Of a stretch of 64,000 nt of DNA, positions 13,252 to 53,719 are shown one piece after another. Every line of letters begins with the position of its first letter. The stretch's first letter is position 1. Source of the stretch: Octopus vulgaris (Eukaryota); NCBI GenBank assembly GCA_951406725.2, contig OX597814.1:146258001-146322000 (forward strand), written 5' to 3'. The position numbers were made by a program, and so were the translations under genes. Under the pieces are notes generated by a model that was not told the DNA's origin, made no database searches, and saw only the letters and a list, made by a program, of their open reading frames with translations.

Positions 13252-13465
13252 TTACTCTCTCTTTTACTTGTTTCAGTCATTTGACTGCGGTCATGCTGGA
13301 GCACCGCCTTTAGTCGAGCAAATCGACCCCAGAACTTATTCTTTGTAAGCCCAGTACTTATTCTATCGGTCTCTTTTGCCGAACCGCTAAGTGACGGGGA
13401 CGTAAACACACCAGCATCGGTTGTCAAGCAATGCTAGGGAGACAAACACAGACACACAAACACAT

Positions 13466-13496
<31 letters not shown>

Positions 13497-13667
13497 CATA
13501 TATACGACAGGCTTCTTTCAGTTTCCGTCTACCAAATCCACTCACAAGGCATTGGTCGGCCCGGGGCTATAGCAGAAGACATTTGCCCAAGATGCCACGC
13601 AGTGGGACTGAACCCGGAACCATGTGGTTGGTTAGCAAGCTACTTACCACACAGCCACTCCTGCGCC
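13252..13667 (-). mobile_element. SINE family A, near full length
   Basis: Reverse complement of head with A box TGGCTGTGTGG and B box GGTTCAGTCCC; full tail. Confidence 0.92.
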
Positions 13668-16542: not shown

Positions 16543-16701
16543 GAGGAGTGGCTGCGTGGTAAGTAGTTTGCTTACCAGCAACATGGGTCCGTTTTCAGTC
16601 CCACTGCATGGCACCTTGAGCTAGTGTCTTCTAATATAGCCTCGAACCGACCAAAGCCTTGTGAGCGGATTTGGTAGACGGAAACTGAAAGAAGCCCGTC
16701 G

Positions 16702-16766
<65 letters not shown>

Positions 16767-41095: not shown

Positions 41096-42095
41096 CATAC
41101 ATACACACAAACGCACAGATAGACACATGTATATATTTTATAAATGTATTGTGTGAATGGTCGCGTAGGCGTATGGGTTTTTTTGAAACTATCTTGTTTG
41201 TTGCTCTGAAAAACAAATGCTATTTTATTCTTTTAATAAAAGTTTGAAAATTAAAATGAAATTCAAGAATTGCGTACAATATTTTATTTTAATTTCGTGC
41301 ATGGGAAGAAGATATTACTTTTAAGTAAAAACGAAATTAATCTTATCCAGGATGAGATTAAATAAATATAATTTTAATTTCTTTTGAGGATACTTGTGGC
41401 AAGCAGGAACAATATCCTTGATCGTTAAAAGCCGTGAACAAAATTACTCTTAATAATATAGTGCGTCAACAAGCTGGAAACATTCTGCCTTCAATCATCC
41501 CTTGGAGGATAGATATAAGATCAATTATCGCTAAGTGAAAACTGTTTCCGAATCACACACTTCCTACAAATATAAATAGTTATTACTCACGTGCATACAA
41601 GATATTTGCTATGCTATTTTGAAATGTTTTAACAGCTTCTCAGATCATTGTGTTAAAATAGAAACATTAAAAAATTGTTTACACTTTCACTTGTTTGTCA
41701 TGAATTTCTACGCTTGTATGTTAATATTATGCTGGCTACATCATCTAACACCATCAATGCAGGTTTAAAATTTATTTATTTTTCAATTAACATTTATTCG
41801 ACGCTTAAGAGGTGCACTTTTGTTCCCGGAAAACAAGGGATCATATCACAAAACTTCATTAGTTATTTAGAATTTTCCTATTAACATCTCGTAAACACAC
41901 ATCAAGTTACAAATGTTTCAAGCCATATGATTATGGTAGATGTTGATAGCTAATTATGGTGTCATCCACGACAAAAGACGCAATATATCATAGTGTACAA
42001 GCTGTACTCCGAGCGGCAAGGCAAATCGTAGGCAAGCAATTCGTTACGTGGGTTTCAACGTGGTGAGAGGGGCGCCAGAAAAGCTTCATATATAT

Positions 42096-42516
42096 ATTAA
42101 TCAAAATAAAAACATGACGCCAAGAATTCAGTGGTACATATGATTTGGGCATTTATTAGACGGATTTATAACAATGCATAATGTGTGTCTATGGCCTTCT
42201 TCAGTCGCGCACAATTACTACTTCAAGGACATGTATTACATCAAAAATTCTACGTTGGGGATGCAAATCCTCTCTGTCGCTTACGACATAATGTGGCGTA
42301 CGAAATATGCTGGAGCCACATTATGTCGTATGCGACTGAGAGGATTTGCATCCCCAACGTAGAATTCTTGATGTAATACATATCCTTGAAGTAGTAACTG
42401 TGCGCGGCTGAAGAAGGCCATAGACACACATTATGCATTGTTATAAATCCGTCTAATAAAGGCCCGAAACATATGTACCGCTGAATTCTTGGCATCATGT
42501 TTTTATTTTGATTAAT
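42096..42516. mobile_element. 421-bp fold-back element: 202-bp inverted arms, 17-nt loop, outward HHR motifs
   Basis: Arms 42096-42297 and 42315-42516 are colinear without indels; the left end abuts (TA)n. Confidence 0.9.
42404..42481 (+). ncRNA. Type I hammerhead ribozyme with extended stem II
   Basis: GCGG-CTGAAGA-A-GGCC-A-TAGAC...GTCTA-ATAAA-GGCC-C-GAAAC-ATAT-GTA-CCGC; predicted GUA cleavage triplet. Confidence 0.75.
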
Positions 42517-42583
42517 TTAGTCCACCACCTACACCACCAAATGGTATATACAGGTGCTTACAATTATCAAGTACTCACCCTGA

Positions 42584-42674
<91 letters not shown>

Positions 42675-45856: not shown

Positions 45857-45905
<49 letters not shown>

Positions 45906-45914
45906 GTGTGTGTG
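45560..45914. repeat. (CA)n/(TA)n compound microsatellite flanking the palindrome
   Basis: Direct reading. Confidence 0.95.
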
Positions 45915-46067
45915 ATTGTGTATAGAAGAATATATTAATAAAAAGAATTCCAACCTTGTCTGATTTTCACGTTTTATTTACAATCTTATAATGATATATT
46001 ATAAGATAATATATTATAATTGAATAAAATAAAATGAAATAGTAGAATGTTAAATATTCATTCTGAT

Positions 46068-46112
46068 TGAACTAGTATTTTCATGCATTGAATTCTGCAA
46101 TCTTCGGGTTCA
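46068..46112 (-). ncRNA. Minimal hammerhead-like motif, left arm (stem III palindrome broken)
   Basis: Mirror of 53508-53552 but reads GAAAATACTA. Confidence 0.5.
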
Positions 46113-46606
46113 TGTAGTAGTGTTGACAGTCATGCTTCACAATTTTTGACTGTAGCAAGATGAGTGATTCTGTGCTATAAATACAGCTGGGTAGGCTCCA
46201 GAGTGCTAGGTTTTGCAAACTGTATTCTGACCAATCAGTGTGTAGTATCACTCAATTACTTAAGCTGATTGGTTGGTTGAGCTGATTGGTTTAGGCATCA
46301 CGCTTTGTTGGACAGGTCAAGAGTCCTGTATCTTGACCCTGGCCGAAGCAGCAATTGTTGGGTTATTTTTAGAAATGTTGTAAATATCCTTTGTCAGAGA
46401 TTTTTATATTTTTATATTTCAATTGTCATCATCATCATTGTCAGCACCTTAATTATTGTTGCTAGTGGTGATGGTGGTGGCAATAGAACTTTTAACCCTA
46501 AATAAGATAATTTTCCTGCTATCTTCGTCTTGATCACCTTTAGTATTGTTGTTGTTGTTAGTGGTCATGGTCGTAGCAGTGGAAGTAATACCTCTAAGTA
46601 TTATTA

Positions 46607-47086
46607 TTATTGCTTATTTAGCTTGGGTTCGAATTTATCAATAAAATTCTTTTCTCTGATTTTCCTCTCGATTTCACTTGGGCTGTGTAATTTGTAGAAT
46701 GGAAATATTATATATATTTTCCGACCACATGTTGCTAGGTGGTTACTCAAAGGTATCTGACGGACCTCTGGGTCTCTAATCTGTTGCCGGTGTACACGTG
46801 AGCGTTCTAATAGTGCGTTTCCCGTCTGACCTACATATATTTCTTCACAATTTGGGCATTTGATGCAGTAAATTAAATTTCTGCTTTTGCAGTTCATATT
46901 CGCGTTTGTGAATATTTTCCCGGTTTTTGTGTTTATATATTGACCGGTATGTATGAATTGGCATGTGCCACATCGGCTATCATTGCATTTAGATACCGTG
47001 AATGTTTGGTCTTTGTTGCTGAGGTCAAATTTTGCCTTTGTTAGTAATGTTTTCAAGTTTTTAGGCTGTCTTTTACTAAGCACCAT
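46607..47086 (-). CDS. PLE Cys-rich linker and GIY-YIG endonuclease, separated from RT by an in-frame TAA
   Basis: RQPKNL, CxxxxCxxC, NLIYCIKCPNC..IYVGQT, ER..H, NH, RE..FI motifs. Confidence 0.9.
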   Translation of the reverse strand: MVLSKRQPKNLKTLLTKAKFDLSNKDQTFTVSKCNDSRCGTCQFIHTGQYINTKTGKIFTNANMNCKSRNLIYCIKCPNCEEIYVGQTGNALLERSRVHRQQIRDPEVRQIPLSNHLATCGRKIYIIFPFYKLHSPSEIERKIREKNFIDKFEPKLNKQ

Positions 47087-47110
47087 AGCTCGATCCTTGA
47101 TTATGTCTTT

Positions 47111-48934
47111 TTATTCATTACTTTGGGCAATGATTGGTAGGTTTGCTTTGGCAATGTTGAAGATATTCTGGTGACATGGGTTGTGTGTCACTATGAATGG
47201 TATGACTTGTTCTTGTTTTCCTCTTCCTTGGGTTGTCTTAAGTTGTTGTATAGGTATTTTTATAGCCCGCTGTATGCCATTTTCTATAAGTAGAGATGGG
47301 TATTTTTGTTTGAGCAAAAATTCTCTTAGTTCTATTAGGCGTTTGTTCCTGATATTTGCATCTTCTACAATAGTACAAATTCTTCTGGCTAGGCAGTATG
47401 GGATGTTACGTTTTGTATGTGGTGGATGGCACGACTTAAAATTTAGGTATTGATGTGTGTCTGTGTGTTTATAGTATATATCTGTGGTGATGGTGGTGTC
47501 TTTTTTAATTACCATTATATCCAGGAATGGTAATTTGGTACTACTCATCTCCTTTGTAAATTTGAGAGATGGGTGTAGGTTGTTCAGGAGGATATTGAAC
47601 TCTTCCAGAGTATTTAGAGATTCTGTCCAGATTATGAAACAGTCGTCTAGGTATCTCTTCCATGCCTTTTCAATATACTTTCTAAATCCAGTGCCATAGT
47701 TTACCTCCACCTCTTGGTAGAGTTGTTCTTCTAAGTATCCCATTACAGAGTTGGCGTAAACGGGAGCAAACCTCGTTCCCATCGCCGTGCCTCTAATTTG
47801 GATGTAATTCTTTCCATTGAAGAAGAATGTGTTATTTTCTAGAATAAGTTTGACTGTGTCTAATATAAATGGCACTGTGAATCTGCTGGGAATCACTTCT
47901 CTATGTTTTTCTAACCAGTATTTAATCGCCTTTATTCCTAAATCGTGTGGAATATTGGTGTAGAGGCTTACCACATCAAAACTTAGCAAAACTGAATTTG
48001 TTTCTGTTGTTTTGGGAAGATGGGACAGGAAGTCGATGTCATCCCTGATGAAACTTGGTATGTAAGTACATAGTGGTTTCAAAACAATGTCAATAAAATT
48101 GCTTAGACGGTGTGTAGGGCATGCTGGACCAGCTATAATAGGTCTAAGTTTTAGGTCTTTTGGATGTAATAATTTTATGTACTCACTTTCTTGTTCTTTT
48201 ACTGCCTGTTGAATGATTTTTGATTTGTGTATTTTTGGTAAGCCGTAGAAGTTGCTGGGTTTTGGTTCAAAATTGGTGATGTAGTCTTTTTCATTATCCG
48301 TAAGTGAGTTGTGGTGTGTTGAAATCAGGTTGTTGATCTTTTTCATGATGTGGTGGTCTATATTTGCGGGTATTTCACAATAGAAGGTTGTATCCTTCAG
48401 TTGGTCTTCAACCAAATCCTTATAGTATTCGGTATCCATAATAACAATTGCACCACCTTTATCTGCTTGTTTAATTATTATTGTTTGATCGTTTTGTATA
48501 CGTTTACATGCAGACATCTCTGATTTGCTAATGTTTGGCCTAACATTGGTATTGCGTCTAAGGGGAAATTTAGACAGGATATCAATGTATTGGTAAAGGT
48601 AGTTATTTCTTCCTTTTGGTGGGGTGAAATTTGATTTATTCCTTACTAGGGATTCATCAATCTCATTACTTTTGTTAGCGAAGAATTCTACAAGTCGTAA
48701 TTTTCGACAGAATTTTTGGATATCCTCCTTTAATTCTTGGTGGTTGGCTGTTGGTGTAGGTGTGAATTTCAGTCCTTTTGACAGAAGTTGGATTTCATCA
48801 TTGTCAAGATCTCTTTTTGATAAATTAATTATTTTAGGATCTATACGTTCAGTTGTTTGGGGTATGTTTCCTCTTGGATTTTTTCTTTCTCCGGTGTTTG
48901 TTGTCCTGACGTAAAAAAATGGATTTTTTTCTGG
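47111..48934 (-). CDS. PLE reverse transcriptase (frame open from 48934; first ATG at 48517)
   Basis: IINLS..LLSKGLKFTP, ADKGG, FYGLPKIHK, RPII, SFDVVSLYTNIP, GTAMG, RYLDD, LPFLD, YL...SCHP. Confidence 0.95.
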   Translation of the reverse strand, partial: PEKNPFFYVRTTNTGERKNPRGNIPQTTERIDPKIINLSKRDLDNDEIQLLSKGLKFTPTPTANHQELKEDIQKFCRKLRLVEFFANKSNEIDESLVRNKSNFTPPKGRNNYLYQYIDILSKFPLRRNTNVRPNISKSEMSACKRIQNDQTIIIKQADKGGAIVIMDTEYYKDLVEDQLKDTTFYCEIPANIDHHIMKKINNLISTHHNSLTDNEKDYITNFEPKPSNFYGLPKIHKSKIIQQAVKEQESEYIKLLHPKDLKLRPIIAGPACPTHRLSNFIDIVLKPLCTYIPSFIRDDIDFLSHLPKTTETNSVLLSFDVVSLYTNIPHDLGIKAIKYWLEKHREVIPSRFTVPFILDTVKLILENNTFFFNGKNYIQIRGTAMGTRFAPVYANSVMGYLEEQLYQEVEVNYGTGFRKYIEKAWKRYLDDCFIIWTESLNTLEEFNILLNNLHPSLKFTKEMSSTKLPFLDIMVIKKDTTITTDIYYKHTDTHQYLNFKSCHPPHTKRNIPYCLARRICTIVEDANIRNKRLIELREFLLKQKYPSLLIENGIQRAIKIPIQQLKTTQGRGKQEQVIPFIVTHNPCHQNIFNIAKANLPIIAQSNE

Positions 48935-50085
48935 TTATGATTTATATTCCTGTTGATGTTTGCTTGATGAATTTTGCGTTTTGGTTGTGGTACTTTACTT
49001 GGTTTCGTTATGTTTTCTGTCTTGTTTTTGGTATTATGTATGCTACTTTTCAATTTCTTGTTAGCATTGTTTTTAACCACCTGGAGAAATGATCTGGGTT
49101 TACTTCTAGATCTAGATCGGTTTTTTGTCCAGTTTCTTGTGGGTAATCTCTGTTGAGGTCTTGAAAATGATCTCCTGTTATTTCTACTGCTAATGGTCTG
49201 TTCAAAACAATATCTATTTTGTTTGTGCTTTTTGTTCATGTTGTGTGCATTAGGGTGTTTGCATACAAAATGGGAAGAGTTCTTACCGTAGTTCGTCTTC
49301 GATTCGTGGTGAAACGGGTGTTCATGTTGCCACGTGTTCTGGTGTATGTTGCGTTGGTGAGGTTGTCCACTTTTAATGCTATTTCTCGGAGTTCTGGTGT
49401 CTTTACCGTAATTTGTAGCATATTTGTCGAGAAATAATTGTTTCCGCTGCCAAAACTTTCTTGATCTGCTTTCTTCTTTTGAGATATCTCTGATCCATAG
49501 TTCTCGCATTTTTTCTGCTATATTGCCGGTCGTTAGTTTGGATATTTCATCTCTGATTTGATCATCGATAGCTTCGTATTTGGCTTTGTAGCGGGATTGT
49601 TTAGACAGGGTAATGGAGATGTCGGTCCTGAATTTTATCAAACTAAGGTCCCATCGAAGTTTAGTTTCTTCCTCTGGTTCTCCTGCAATTTCTTTAATTA
49701 GGTACTTCCGAGGAAGTATGGGTGCCGCTAAAGATATCCATTTCGAAAGTATTTCAGCATATTTTTCGCATTTATATGCCTTCCAGAAGTTTTGTTTTCT
49801 TATGTTAAGGAGTTTTTTCCATGTCTTCTGTATCTCTTCTCTTTTTCGGTGTGCCTCTTTTTCCAGATTTCTTTCGTTTATTTCTGACATCCAAGGAGGT
49901 TGTGGTAGGCTTTCTCTTGTAGATTTTATAATTGTTGGTATCATTTCAGCTAAATTCTTAATTTCAGTGTTTATGTGTTCATTTCCAAGTTTTCCGTCTG
50001 TAGACTGTTTTTCTATTTCCTTTAAAATAGAGGATTGTGTGTCAATCATCGTGATGAGTGTTGATAATTTCGATGAAATTTCCAT
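48841..50085 (-). CDS. PLE upstream ORF (at least 414 aa): helical, coiled-coil-like N half and basic low-complexity C half; 5' end may be truncated by the fold-back
   Basis: Stop-free across spacer and left arm. Codons upstream of the ATG at 50085 are only the antisense of the right arm. Confidence 0.72.
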   Translation of the reverse strand: MEISSKLSTLITMIDTQSSILKEIEKQSTDGKLGNEHINTEIKNLAEMIPTIIKSTRESLPQPPWMSEINERNLEKEAHRKREEIQKTWKKLLNIRKQNFWKAYKCEKYAEILSKWISLAAPILPRKYLIKEIAGEPEEETKLRWDLSLIKFRTDISITLSKQSRYKAKYEAIDDQIRDEISKLTTGNIAEKMRELWIRDISKEESRSRKFWQRKQLFLDKYATNYGKDTRTPRNSIKSGQPHQRNIHQNTWQHEHPFHHESKTNYGKNSSHFVCKHPNAHNMNKKHKQNRYCFEQTISSRNNRRSFSRPQQRLPTRNWTKNRSRSRSKPRSFLQVVKNNANKKLKSSIHNTKNKTENITKPSKVPQPKRKIHQANINRNINHNQKKIHFFTSGQQTPEKEKIQEETYPKQLNV

Positions 50086-50779
50086 AACGACCGGCAATAT
50101 AGCAGAAAAAATGCGAGAACTATGGATCAGAGATATCTCAAAAGAAGAAAGCAGATCAAGAAAGTTTTGGCAGCGGAAACAATTATTTCTCGACAAATAT
50201 GCTACAAATTACGGTAAAGACACCAGAACTCCGAGAAATAGCATTAAAAGTGGACAACCTCACCAACGCAACATACACCAGAACACGTGGCAACATGAAC
50301 ACCCGTTTCACCACGAATCGAAGACGAACTACGGTAAGAACTCTTCCCATTTTGTATGCAAACACCCTAATGCACACAACATGAACAAAAAGCACAAACA
50401 AAATAGATATTGTTTTGAACAGACCATTAGCAGTAGAAATAACAGGAGATCATTTTCAAGACCTCAACAGAGATTACCCACAAGAAACTGGACAAAAAAC
50501 CGATCTAGATCTAGAAGTAAACCCAGATCATTTCTCCAGGTGGTTAAAAACAATGCTAACAAGAAATTGAAAAGTAGCATACATAATACCAAAAACAAGA
50601 CAGAAAACATAACGAAACCAAGTAAAGTACCACAACCAAAACGCAAAATTCATCAAGCAAACATCAACAGGAATATAAATCATAACCAGAAAAAAATCCA
50701 TTTTTTTACGTCAGGACAACAAACACCGGAGAAAGAAAAAATCCAAGAGGAAACATACCCCAAACAACTGAACGTATAG
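50085..50779 (+). CDS. 5'-truncated copy of the PLE upstream ORF (right arm)
   Basis: TTGNIAEK...YPKQLNV is identical to the left-arm product. Confidence 0.65.
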
Positions 50780-52509
50780 ATCCTAAAATAATTAATTTAT
50801 CAAAAAGAGATCTTGACAATGATGAAATCCAACTTCTGTCAAAAGGACTGAAATTCACACCTACACCAACAGCCAACCACCAAGAATTAAAGGAGGATAT
50901 CCAAAAATTCTGTCGAAAATTACGACTTGTAGAATTCTTCGCTAACAAAAGTAATGAGATTGATGAATCCCTAGTAAGGAATAAATCAAATTTCACCCCA
51001 CCAAAAGGAAGAAATAACTACCTTTACCAATACATTGATATCCTGTCTAAATTTCCCCTTAGACGCAATACCAATGTTAGGCCAAACATTAGCAAATCAG
51101 AGATGTCTGCATGTAAACGTATACAAAACGATCAAACAATAATAATTAAACAAGCAGATAAAGGTGGTGCAATTGTTATTATGGATACCGAATACTATAA
51201 GGATTTGGTTGAAGACCAACTGAAGGATACAACCTTCTATTGTGAAATACCCGCAAATATAGACCACCACATCATGAAAAAGATCAACAACCTGATTTCA
51301 ACACACCACAACTCACTTACGGATAATGAAAAAGACTACATCACCAATTTTGAACCAAAACCCAGCAACTTCTACGGCTTACCAAAAATACACAAATCAA
51401 AAATCATTCAACAGGCAGTAAAAGAACAAGAAAGTGAGTACATAAAATTATTACATCCAAAAGACCTAAAACTTAGACCTATTATAGCTGGTCCAGCATG
51501 CCCTACACACCGTCTAAGCAATTTTATTGACATTGTTTTGAAACCACTATGTACTTACATACCAAGTTTCATCAGGGATGACATCGACTTCCTGTCCCAT
51601 CTTCCCAAAACAACAGAAACAAATTCAGTTTTGCTAAGTTTTGATGTGGTAAGCCTCTACACCAATATTCCACACGATTTAGGAATAAAGGCGATTAAAT
51701 ACTGGTTAGAAAAACATAGAGAAGTGATTCCCAGCAGATTCACAGTGCCATTTATATTAGACACAGTCAAACTTATTCTAGAAAATAACACATTCTTCTT
51801 CAATGGAAAGAATTACATCCAAATTAGAGGCACGGCGATGGGAACGAGGTTTGCTCCCGTTTACGCCAACTCTGTAATGGGATACTTAGAAGAACAACTC
51901 TACCAAGAGGTGGAGGTAAACTATGGCACTGGATTTAGAAAGTATATTGAAAAGGCATGGAAGAGATACCTAGACGACTGTTTCATAATCTGGACAGAAT
52001 CTCTAAATACTCTGGAAGAGTTCAATATCCTCCTGAACAACCTACACCCATCTCTCAAATTTACAAAGGAGATGAGTAGTACCAAATTACCATTCCTGGA
52101 TATAATGGTAATTAAAAAAGACACCACCATCACCACAGATATATACTATAAACACACAGACACACATCAATACCTAAATTTTAAGTCGTGCCATCCACCA
52201 CATACAAAACGTAACATCCCATACTGCCTAGCCAGAAGAATTTGTACTATTGTAGAAGATGCAAATATCAGGAACAAACGCCTAATAGAACTAAGAGAAT
52301 TTTTGCTCAAACAAAAATACCCATCTCTACTTATAGAAAATGGCATACAGCGGGCTATAAAAATACCTATACAACAACTTAAGACAACCCAAGGAAGAGG
52401 AAAACAAGAACAAGTCATACCATTCATAGTGACACACAACCCATGTCACCAGAATATCTTCAACATTGCCAAAGCAAACCTACCAATCATTGCCCAAAGT
52501 AATGAATAA
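50686..52509 (+). CDS. PLE reverse transcriptase (frame open from 50686; first ATG at 51103)
   Basis: Same motifs as the left arm. Confidence 0.95.
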   Translation, partial: PEKNPFFYVRTTNTGERKNPRGNIPQTTERIDPKIINLSKRDLDNDEIQLLSKGLKFTPTPTANHQELKEDIQKFCRKLRLVEFFANKSNEIDESLVRNKSNFTPPKGRNNYLYQYIDILSKFPLRRNTNVRPNISKSEMSACKRIQNDQTIIIKQADKGGAIVIMDTEYYKDLVEDQLKDTTFYCEIPANIDHHIMKKINNLISTHHNSLTDNEKDYITNFEPKPSNFYGLPKIHKSKIIQQAVKEQESEYIKLLHPKDLKLRPIIAGPACPTHRLSNFIDIVLKPLCTYIPSFIRDDIDFLSHLPKTTETNSVLLSFDVVSLYTNIPHDLGIKAIKYWLEKHREVIPSRFTVPFILDTVKLILENNTFFFNGKNYIQIRGTAMGTRFAPVYANSVMGYLEEQLYQEVEVNYGTGFRKYIEKAWKRYLDDCFIIWTESLNTLEEFNILLNNLHPSLKFTKEMSSTKLPFLDIMVIKKDTTITTDIYYKHTDTHQYLNFKSCHPPHTKRNIPYCLARRICTIVEDANIRNKRLIELREFLLKQKYPSLLIENGIQRAIKIPIQQLKTTQGRGKQEQVIPFIVTHNPCHQNIFNIAKANLPIIAQSNE

Positions 52510-52533
52510 AAAGACATAATCAAGGATCGAGCT

Positions 52534-53013
52534 ATGGTGCTTAGTAAAAGACAGCCTAAAAACTTGAAAACATTACTAACAAAGGCAAAATTTGACCTCA
52601 GCAACAAAGACCAAACATTCACGGTATCTAAATGCAATGATAGCCGATGTGGCACATGCCAATTCATACATACCGGTCAATATATAAACACAAAAACCGG
52701 GAAAATATTCACAAACGCGAATATGAACTGCAAAAGCAGAAATTTAATTTACTGCATCAAATGCCCAAATTGTGAAGAAATATATGTAGGTCAGACGGGA
52801 AACGCACTATTAGAACGCTCACGTGTACACCGGCAACAGATTAGAGACCCAGAGGTCCGTCAGATACCTTTGAGTAACCACCTAGCAACATGTGGTCGGA
52901 AAATATATATAATATTTCCATTCTACAAATTACACAGCCCAAGTGAAATCGAGAGGAAAATCAGAGAAAAGAATTTTATTGATAAATTCGAACCCAAGCT
53001 AAATAAGCAATAA
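52534..53013 (+). CDS. PLE Cys-rich linker and GIY-YIG endonuclease, same frame as RT after TAA 52507-52509
   Basis: Reads aat gaa TAA aaa gac ata atc aag gat cga gct atg. Confidence 0.9.
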   Translation: MVLSKRQPKNLKTLLTKAKFDLSNKDQTFTVSKCNDSRCGTCQFIHTGQYINTKTGKIFTNANMNCKSRNLIYCIKCPNCEEIYVGQTGNALLERSRVHRQQIRDPEVRQIPLSNHLATCGRKIYIIFPFYKLHSPSEIERKIREKNFIDKFEPKLNKQ

Positions 53014-53330
53014 TAATAATACTTAGAGGTATTACTTCCACTGCTACGACCATGACCACTAACAACAACAACAATACTAAAGGTGATCAAGACGAAGATA
53101 GCAGGAAAATTATCTTATTTAGGGTTAAAAGTTCTATTGCCACCACCATCACCACTAGCAACAATAATTAAGGTGCTGACAATGATGATGATGACAATTG
53201 AAATATAAAAATATAAAAATCTCTGACAAAGGATATTTACAACATTTCTAAAAATAACCCAACAATTGCTGCTTCGGCCAGGGTCAAGATACAGGACTCT
53301 TGACCTGTCCAACAAAGCGTGATGCCTAAA

Positions 53331-53444
53331 CCAATCAGCTCAACCAACCAATCAGCTTAAGTAATTGAGTGATACTACACACTGATTGGTCAGAATACAG
53401 TTTGCAAAACCTAGCACTCTGGAGCCTACCCAGCTGTATTTATA
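53331..53444 (+). promoter_or_regulatory. Candidate pseudo-LTR promoter: three CCAAT boxes and TATTTATA (mirrored at 46176-46289)
   Basis: ccaatcagc twice (53331, 53348), ctgattgg (about 53382), TATTTATA at 53437-53444 (TATAAATA on minus). Confidence 0.4.
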
Positions 53445-53507
53445 GCACAGAATCACTCATCTTGCTACAGTCAAAAATTGTGAAGCATGACTGTCAACAC
53501 TACTACA

Positions 53508-53552
53508 TGAACCCGAAGATTGCAGAATTCAATGCATGAAAGTACTAGTTCA
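53508..53552 (+). ncRNA. Minimal type I hammerhead-like motif in the PLE 3' region, CCGA core variant
   Basis: TGAAC-CCGAAGA-T-TGCA-gaattcaa-TGCA-T-GAAA-GTAC-TA-GTTCA: 5-bp stem I, 4-bp stem II, palindromic AGTACT. Confidence 0.62.
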
Positions 53553-53719
53553 ATCAGAATGAATATTTAACATTCTACTATTTCATTTTATTTTATTCAA
53601 TTATAATATATTATCTTATAATATATCATTATAAGATTGTAAATAAAACGTGAAAATCAGACAAGGTTGGAATTCTTTTTATTAATATATATATATATAT
53701 ATATATATACATAAATATC

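Follow-up and report, generated by a model that had tools for sequence, protein, structure and literature searches.

A hammerhead-bearing hairpin in the Octopus vulgaris genome: head-to-head truncated ends of a Penelope-like element, probably from one double-primed insertion

An inverted truncated copy together with a tail at one end is described as typical of insertions of EN+ Penelope-like elements (PLEs) (PMC8557442; PMC3846280; PMC8969392). A paper of 2014 recorded hammerhead motifs of Schistosoma mansoni in pairs on opposite strands, with 100-700 bp between the members (PMC4209133). The layout of the octopus hairpin analysed here is thus one that is already published (PMC8557442, PMC3846280, PMC4209133). 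EN+ PLE insertions (Craig et al. 2021, PMC8557442; Pen2a_Av, PMC3846280) share with the hairpin the inverted truncated copy and the one-end tail, as well as a microsatellite target that hides the target-site duplication and a hammerhead in the pLTR (PMC8557442). The hairpin differs from them in that both of its copies are only ~200-280 nt long, and in its tail, which measures ~70 nt with longer variants in our family as against 30-40 nt in the published EN+ PLEs (PMC8557442). The Hydra clade of PLEs, as set out in section 11 of the same paper (PMC8557442), resembles the family of the hairpin in having DKT, a CxCx5C linker, CxxC and CxH around a conserved E and N, (TA)n insertion, a hammerhead and a single ORF with a C-terminal GIY-YIG, and apparently in lacking GxKF/Y, whereas our family has RWA for RWK and a length of ~4.7 kb, in contrast to 'generally <3 kb' in that clade.

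Three further systems bear on the locus. The minimal and palindromic-helix-III type I hammerheads that Cervera and De la Pena (2014, PMC4209133) described for metazoan PLEs have, like those of the hairpin, a short helix I, an extra nucleotide after A9 and a palindromic helix III suited to dimers; those of the hairpin differ in a long helix II extension and in a canonical G10.1-C11.1 pair that needs a bulged register. In the in vitro study of Poseidon_Ac (PAc) from Anolis (Frangieh et al. 2024, PMC11167929), the purified PLE protein is described as cutting AT-rich DNA on both strands and extending both, as starting at two sites that bound the tail, as a predicted dimer and as not needing hammerhead cleavage. 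PAc and our family share two fixed 3' ends bounding an AC-rich tail, an AT-rich target and copies that run through the hammerhead cut site, but they belong to different clades, and the tail lies upstream of the ORF start here and inside the ORF in PAc. Metazoan non-LTR retrozymes, as described in PMC7229834, are likewise small and non-coding with a type I hammerhead; however, they are tandem direct repeats processed to circles, whereas the present hairpin is an inverted, one-off pair of stumps from an autonomous element. A term search of the main text of a repeat annotation for an octopus genome (PMC13282606) gave no mention of hammerheads or Hydra elements, and a literature search, with older subscription Penelope papers and supplements outside its scope, found no PLE double-priming counts or cap signature.

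The hairpin lies in a stretch of 64,000 nt of O. vulgaris DNA, the whole of which was analysed and is called the window. Its parts are the following.

42088..42097, no strand: (AT)5 target microsatellite of the left side, read from the sequence and overlapping the AT-rich element end
42096..42297, minus strand: left copy, the pLTR end of a Hydra-type PLE, truncated on its 5' side, tailless and spanning family positions -201 to 0
42131..42208, minus strand: decayed type I hammerhead motif of the left arm, with G12>A at 42146, A15.1>U at 42143 and broken stem pairs
42298..42307, no strand: junction filler of ~8-10 nt between the copies, the junction itself occurring once in the genome
42308..42516, plus strand: right copy, a 5'-truncated pLTR end, family position ~-208 to 0
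42404..42481, plus strand: intact type I hammerhead motif of the right arm, predicted cut after 42477
42517..42586, plus strand: PLE tail, AC-rich, ~70 nt, on the right arm only
42587..42632, no strand: (TA)n target microsatellite of the right side, read from the sequence

The inverted repeat consists of arms at 42093-42297 and 42315-42519 that are 94% complementary, with 11 mismatches in 202 nt when 42096-42297 is compared with 42315-42516, and an ORF search with a threshold of 100 aa returned none that long. Arm alignment and ORF list (>=100 aa) agree with an earlier note on this DNA, which had given 202-bp arms, a 17-nt loop and no ORF. The boundary that it had placed at 42516 proved too short, as the right copy extends ~70 nt past this point to ~42586 and the extension is conserved in many other copies. 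This one-sided tail, which had been overlooked, is the diagnostic part of the insertion: with PLE tail on the right side only, the insertion is asymmetric, and in full-length elements the tail runs on toward the ORF start. About 7-9 nt of the 17-nt 'loop' are part of the right copy. A target-site duplication is unreadable at the hairpin because the AT-rich element end overlaps the (AT)n/(TA)n target. The left flank is single-copy in the genome, and there is therefore no empty site in this assembly; contigs of X15 and X16 (one study) follow the left flank to 42097 and then continue as (AT)n for 11 nt, which gives a weak hint of an empty site at the locus, and none of the contigs matching the left flank spans the loop. 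Both arms share four minority alleles of the family, and since none of the 11 differences between them has both alleles common in the family, these differences most likely arose after insertion.

A Penelope-like origin, as well as a check for copies continuing into a GIY-YIG ORF, had been proposed beforehand, and both were confirmed, as similar copies do continue into an ORF with RT and GIY-YIG. At one locus (L262), a frameshifted RT + GIY-YIG ORF (aa 16-836) is followed by a copy that matches the right arm and its tail at 96%; a second (L031) holds aa 618-836 of the ORF and, like L032, the EN end. The intact 836-aa frame was present in 3 of the 12 fetched loci, in a sister subfamily ~90% like the window's arm in which the ORFs start 191 nt after the cut site; the ORF-bearing copies were reached via a search with a long-tailed copy. 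The 836-aa product is a single ORF with YRDD and a C-terminal VIY..YIG, in which DKG is modified to DKT (PADKTGNW), the CxCx5C linker reads CNCRCASEC, and CxxC (CQLCCVE) and CxH (CIH) flank the conserved E and N; no N-terminal GxKF/Y was seen in the translation. The RWK position is RWA in the window's family and RWK or RWR in 5 of 7 relatives checked. With the exception of RWA for RWK, the parent element matches a Hydra clade PLE by its motifs. Because a Pfam search with the parent ORF gave no match to RT or GIY-YIG, the domain assignment is based on these motifs and on a protein atlas, in which the ORF sits beside clusters with GIY-YIG and HTH_animal families. The parent unit measures ~4.7 kb with a long microsatellite-rich 3' UTR, tandem copies of the family lie ~4.7 kb apart, and 77 of 82 copies on chromosome 1 end in (TA)n. 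Two loci (L072 and L073) show the order inverted copy, pLTR, ORF and pLTR, that is, a partial tandem plus an adjacent inverted truncated copy. Further Hydra-type families (L215-L234) share ~35-53% identity over the first 200 aa and have their own hammerhead stems each, some with open frames of 900-1,090 aa. At L039-L062, copies also end at ~+117 and +155 to +160 in addition to 0 and +70, giving more than two 3' ends.

The genome as searched comprises 2.8 Gb in 227 contigs. With one arm as the query, 922 candidates came up; among the 40 that were scored, the best had 95-97% identity. A 21-mer of the hammerhead motif had 1,818 exact matches genome-wide and its control 0, which puts the family at no fewer than 1,818 copies. 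By hand count among the first 100 matches listed, 26 outward-facing pairs closer than 10 kb were present, with spacings of 239-9,845 nt, as against one inward-facing pair; around half of these copies sit in outward-facing pairs of variable spacing. All 44 distinct pairs shorter than 1.5 kb, the window pair included, carry the tail on one arm and lack it on the other, and so do all 8 longer pairs; this makes 52 of 52 pairs in a sample that pools several searches, some of them chosen for the tail. Single copies carry a tail in 43 of 82 cases, and independence would give ~5e-14 for the pair pattern. The two arms of a pair differ little at polymorphic sites (0.2 differences per pair versus 2.0 against random copies in 25 pairs, and 0.33 versus 3.8 in a second set of 12), and none of 40 pairs mixes subfamilies A and B. 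Because the arms agree at polymorphic sites and subfamilies never mix, both arms of a pair are, as judged from these alleles, derived from the same source.

We read 42096-42586 as head-to-head 5'-truncated pLTR ends of a PLE, set in a (TA)n tract and bearing one tail, that are likely to stem from one double-primed insertion event (probability roughly 0.7). The endonuclease of the element would cut an AT-rich site on both strands, an activity that the purified PLE protein has in vitro (PMC11167929). Unprocessed RNA from one source locus would then serve as the template for both DNA ends, one of them priming at position 0, where the core ends, and the other at +70, where the tail ends. Both cDNAs would stop after ~200-280 nt and then be end-joined with 8-10 nt of filler, and the hammerheads would be passengers of the pLTR. 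Neither window copy is interrupted at the predicted cut site, so that their template would have been uncut RNA. A ribozyme-cleavage footprint was considered from the ends of candidate copies, 6 of 12 beginning and none of 15 ending at the cut site, and we make no claim from these counts, which lack a neighbouring-position control.

Alternatively, the second arm could have been made by self-priming (fold-back) of one nascent strand, the one-sided tail being left by endonuclease resolution. Both parts of this model are published proposals, fold-back for head-to-head PLE palindromes in PMC3846280 and a tail by EN resolution in PMC8557442, and a shared source of the arms is what such an origin would give. 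In 23 of 44 pairs no more than 10 nt separate the inner ends of the arms, as self-priming predicts, and in the window pair the tailed arm is also the longer inward (-208 versus -201), which permits fold-back here. However, a common stop near -250 accounts for most of this closeness, and outside this hotspot the inner ends show no significant correlation (rho 0.28, p 0.15, n 27). Of the 44 pairs, 22 have the tailed arm extending deeper and 19 the untailed arm, while in 3 the two arms are of equal reach. In these 19 pairs, which are non-nested, each arm has sequence that is absent from the other, and the untailed arm extends deeper by up to 189 nt; because each arm has such private sequence, a single fold-back cannot give them without later deletion. 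Later central deletions or gene conversion could be an alternative cause of both the non-nesting and the arm concordance, and two candidate young, undeleted non-nested pairs (L086 and L189) have arms that are 100% identical over short overlaps. Thus, of the fold-back unit that the earlier note had envisaged, repeated formation stands, while a simple one-cDNA fold-back fits poorly with the extra sequence on each arm in 19 of 44 pairs. The one-tail rule and the non-nesting favour two priming events over one fold-back, and we regard the latter as unlikely.

The right-arm hammerhead motif reads GCGG (42404), CUGAAGA (42408), A, GGCC..GGCC, C, GAAA (42466), C-AUAU-G and UA^CCGC, with UAGAC/GUCUA as the stem II extension. 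It has a 4-bp stem I, an additional A after A9, an extended stem II and a 1-bp palindromic stem III (CAUAUG), and the core elements CUGAnGA, GAAA and UH occur in order around three helices. The minimum free energy fold predicted for the isolated 80-mer has hammerhead topology, with pair probabilities of 0.93-0.96 for stem I, 0.93-0.96 for stem II and 0.28 for the C-G pair of stem III. The hexamer of stem III is palindromic, and pairing at -9.0 kcal/mol is predicted for two 10-mers around it. The most stable register of helix II leaves an additional C before G12, and the G10.1-C11.1 pair that closes helix II is possible only in a bulged register (+1.1 versus -9.7 kcal/mol). The intact core that had been claimed for the right arm is thus upheld by the sequence and by the isolated fold, with cleavage itself predicted only, and so is the decayed minus-strand copy claimed for the left arm, which has lost G12 (42146), A15.1 (42143) and three stem pairs, one in stem II and two in stem I. 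The motifs point outward, although the distance from the predicted cut to the core end is 39 nt and not the ~35 nt from the ends first stated. An Rfam scan of 42050-42570 up to E 10 gave no hammerhead family, only hairpin-shaped miRNA models, and no hammerhead was present in the best 150 of 177 rows for the whole window.

Across family copies, CUGAAGA is changed at 3 of 585 sites compared with 385 of 7,128 upstream; a core lacking conservation, which the earlier note had named as evidence against its reading, was not what we found. The same core with different but still paired stems was present in related families at 8 of 20 loci examined, the motif lying 186-256 nt before the ORF where an ORF was found. 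Because the related families keep the core while stems change yet stay paired, the comparison supports the hammerhead motif as a conserved RNA structure. We also considered whether the left hammerhead had been selected against, 5 of its 8 private changes falling in 37 structural positions (p 0.007), but did not retain this reading, as the test was post hoc and two of the changes are CpG changes. In a read-through RNA of the hairpin the arms are predicted to form a duplex of -340 kcal/mol, with a hammerhead pair probability of 0.0, and the outward orientation of the motifs means that transcription always reaches the antisense copy before the sense motif. A read-through transcript of either strand is thus predicted to hold its hammerheads locked in a 200-bp duplex, so that the expected product of the locus would be double-stranded RNA and not a ribozyme that cuts. 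In Drosophila, inverted copies of Penelope are reported as a source of siRNAs (PMC3681739), which is a parallel only, the hairpin being known here from sequence.

The small size, the absence of an ORF and the hammerhead motifs could also be those of a hairpin, retrozyme-like or miniature and non-autonomous, that would be transcribed and moved in one piece; it has been suggested that metazoan retrozymes derive from PLE pLTRs (bioRxiv 10.64898/2026.07.22.740005), and pair spacings do cluster near 400-417 nt. However, the 19-mer across the window junction has one exact match in the genome, two more at 2 mismatches being at control level, and pairs spaced near 407 nt have junctions that differ at the base level, which rules out this spacing cluster as a mobilised unit. 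The copies are inverted, whereas retrozymes are defined by hammerhead-bearing monomers of 150-450 nt in direct tandem; none of the 15 candidate copies ends at the cut site, and in the hairpin RNA the motifs are predicted to be unable to fold. Both the miniature mobile unit and the retrozyme-like unit of the earlier note thus gave way to an inverted pair whose loop position varies from pair to pair, the outcome that it had linked to repeated fold-back rather than mobilisation as a unit, and whose junction occurs once; we consider either highly improbable. Because spacing varies, the window junction is unique and the ~407-nt junctions differ, hairpins of this family are, on these comparisons, formed repeatedly rather than copied as units, and the present one was likely built once at its landing site and not moved as a unit. 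Long inverted arms, no ORF and TA-rich flanks could suggest a DNA-transposon MITE or foldback element driven by a DDE transposase, and the risk of misannotation as a MITE was rightly foreseen, but the probability of such an origin is negligible, given asymmetric ends, lengths of 0.1 to 10 kb in place of a uniform-length unit with symmetric TIRs in many copies, termini and sequence that are those of an RT + GIY-YIG element, a link to an RT ORF that refutes the DNA-transposon reading, and a motif core conserved while stems change in related families. Among other arrangements, insertion and flank are common to both members at ~96% in L003/L004 and L011/L028, which are segmental duplications carrying the element; the junctions of L150 and L151 (C1 ~113.26 and ~113.52 Mb) hold repeated leader pieces of 200-290 nt, like repeated template switching; and at L045-L046 (C4 ~23.559 Mb) a ~230-nt tandem unit joins ORF-start sequence to the hammerhead 3' side in an inverted arrangement.

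Of 82 copies, 23 begin between -238 and -258 at their 5' end (at least one may be an alignment break), six of them exactly at -250, the A of TCATTC, a sequence that we take to resemble an initiator (Inr) element. The piling up of 5' ends at this Inr-like site is the small addition made here, and it possibly marks a capped RNA start. A non-templated base before the -250 A was present in 70 copies, with truncation at this point in 29 of the first 30. This base was G in 35 of the 70 copies versus 9 of 36 at the control position -246 (p 0.02), a comparison in which the opposite arm can have supplied the template for many of the Gs and TA flanks inflate the control; the apparent cap-G excess is suggestive only. 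The window copies stop short of the -250 site. Tentatively, and somewhat against the odds, the short hairpins might be paired run-off cDNAs of a capped leader, with -250 as the start and the G as the copied cap, made by a dimeric RT that would prime both cut ends at two fixed sites on RNA of one source.

The window also contains, at 45904-53699, a 7.8-kb head-to-head insertion of a different PLE with an upstream ORF and GIY-YIG, whose RT is Neptune-like by motif (DKG, GxKF and a Cx4CxxC linker). Its 3.6-kb arms differ at one internal site, which falls within its hammerhead motif, a variant with the core CCGAAGA (GAAAG at 53542 versus GAAAA at 46078). A TAA between RT and EN is common to both arms, and a ~26-nt AC-rich tail, which recurs at L016 and L204, is present on the left arm only. 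The likeness formerly seen between the hairpin end and this large palindrome amounts to AT-rich ends; kinship of the two was ruled out, DNA similarity being at chance level and the RTs 23% identical. Elsewhere in the window, a 221-nt inverted pair (13442-13662 and 16544-16764), whose members are 86% alike with 2.9 kb between them, has the look of a dispersed short repeat present twice.

The hairpin locus is thus an ordinary one, a dead stump among about 1,800 or more copies, and it shows clearly how inverted-repeat finders could take PLE debris for a MITE. Its family, with the one-tail rule holding in 52 of 52 pairs, provides a large sample from nature for the question of how head-to-head PLE insertions are made, and with intact parent ORFs available for assay it is of modest use as a well-sampled test case. 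Should the short hairpins indeed be paired run-off cDNAs of a capped leader, the octopus genome would preserve, in statistical form, a record of how PLEs insert, and would have been seeded with hundreds of self-silenced hairpins that form double-stranded RNA.
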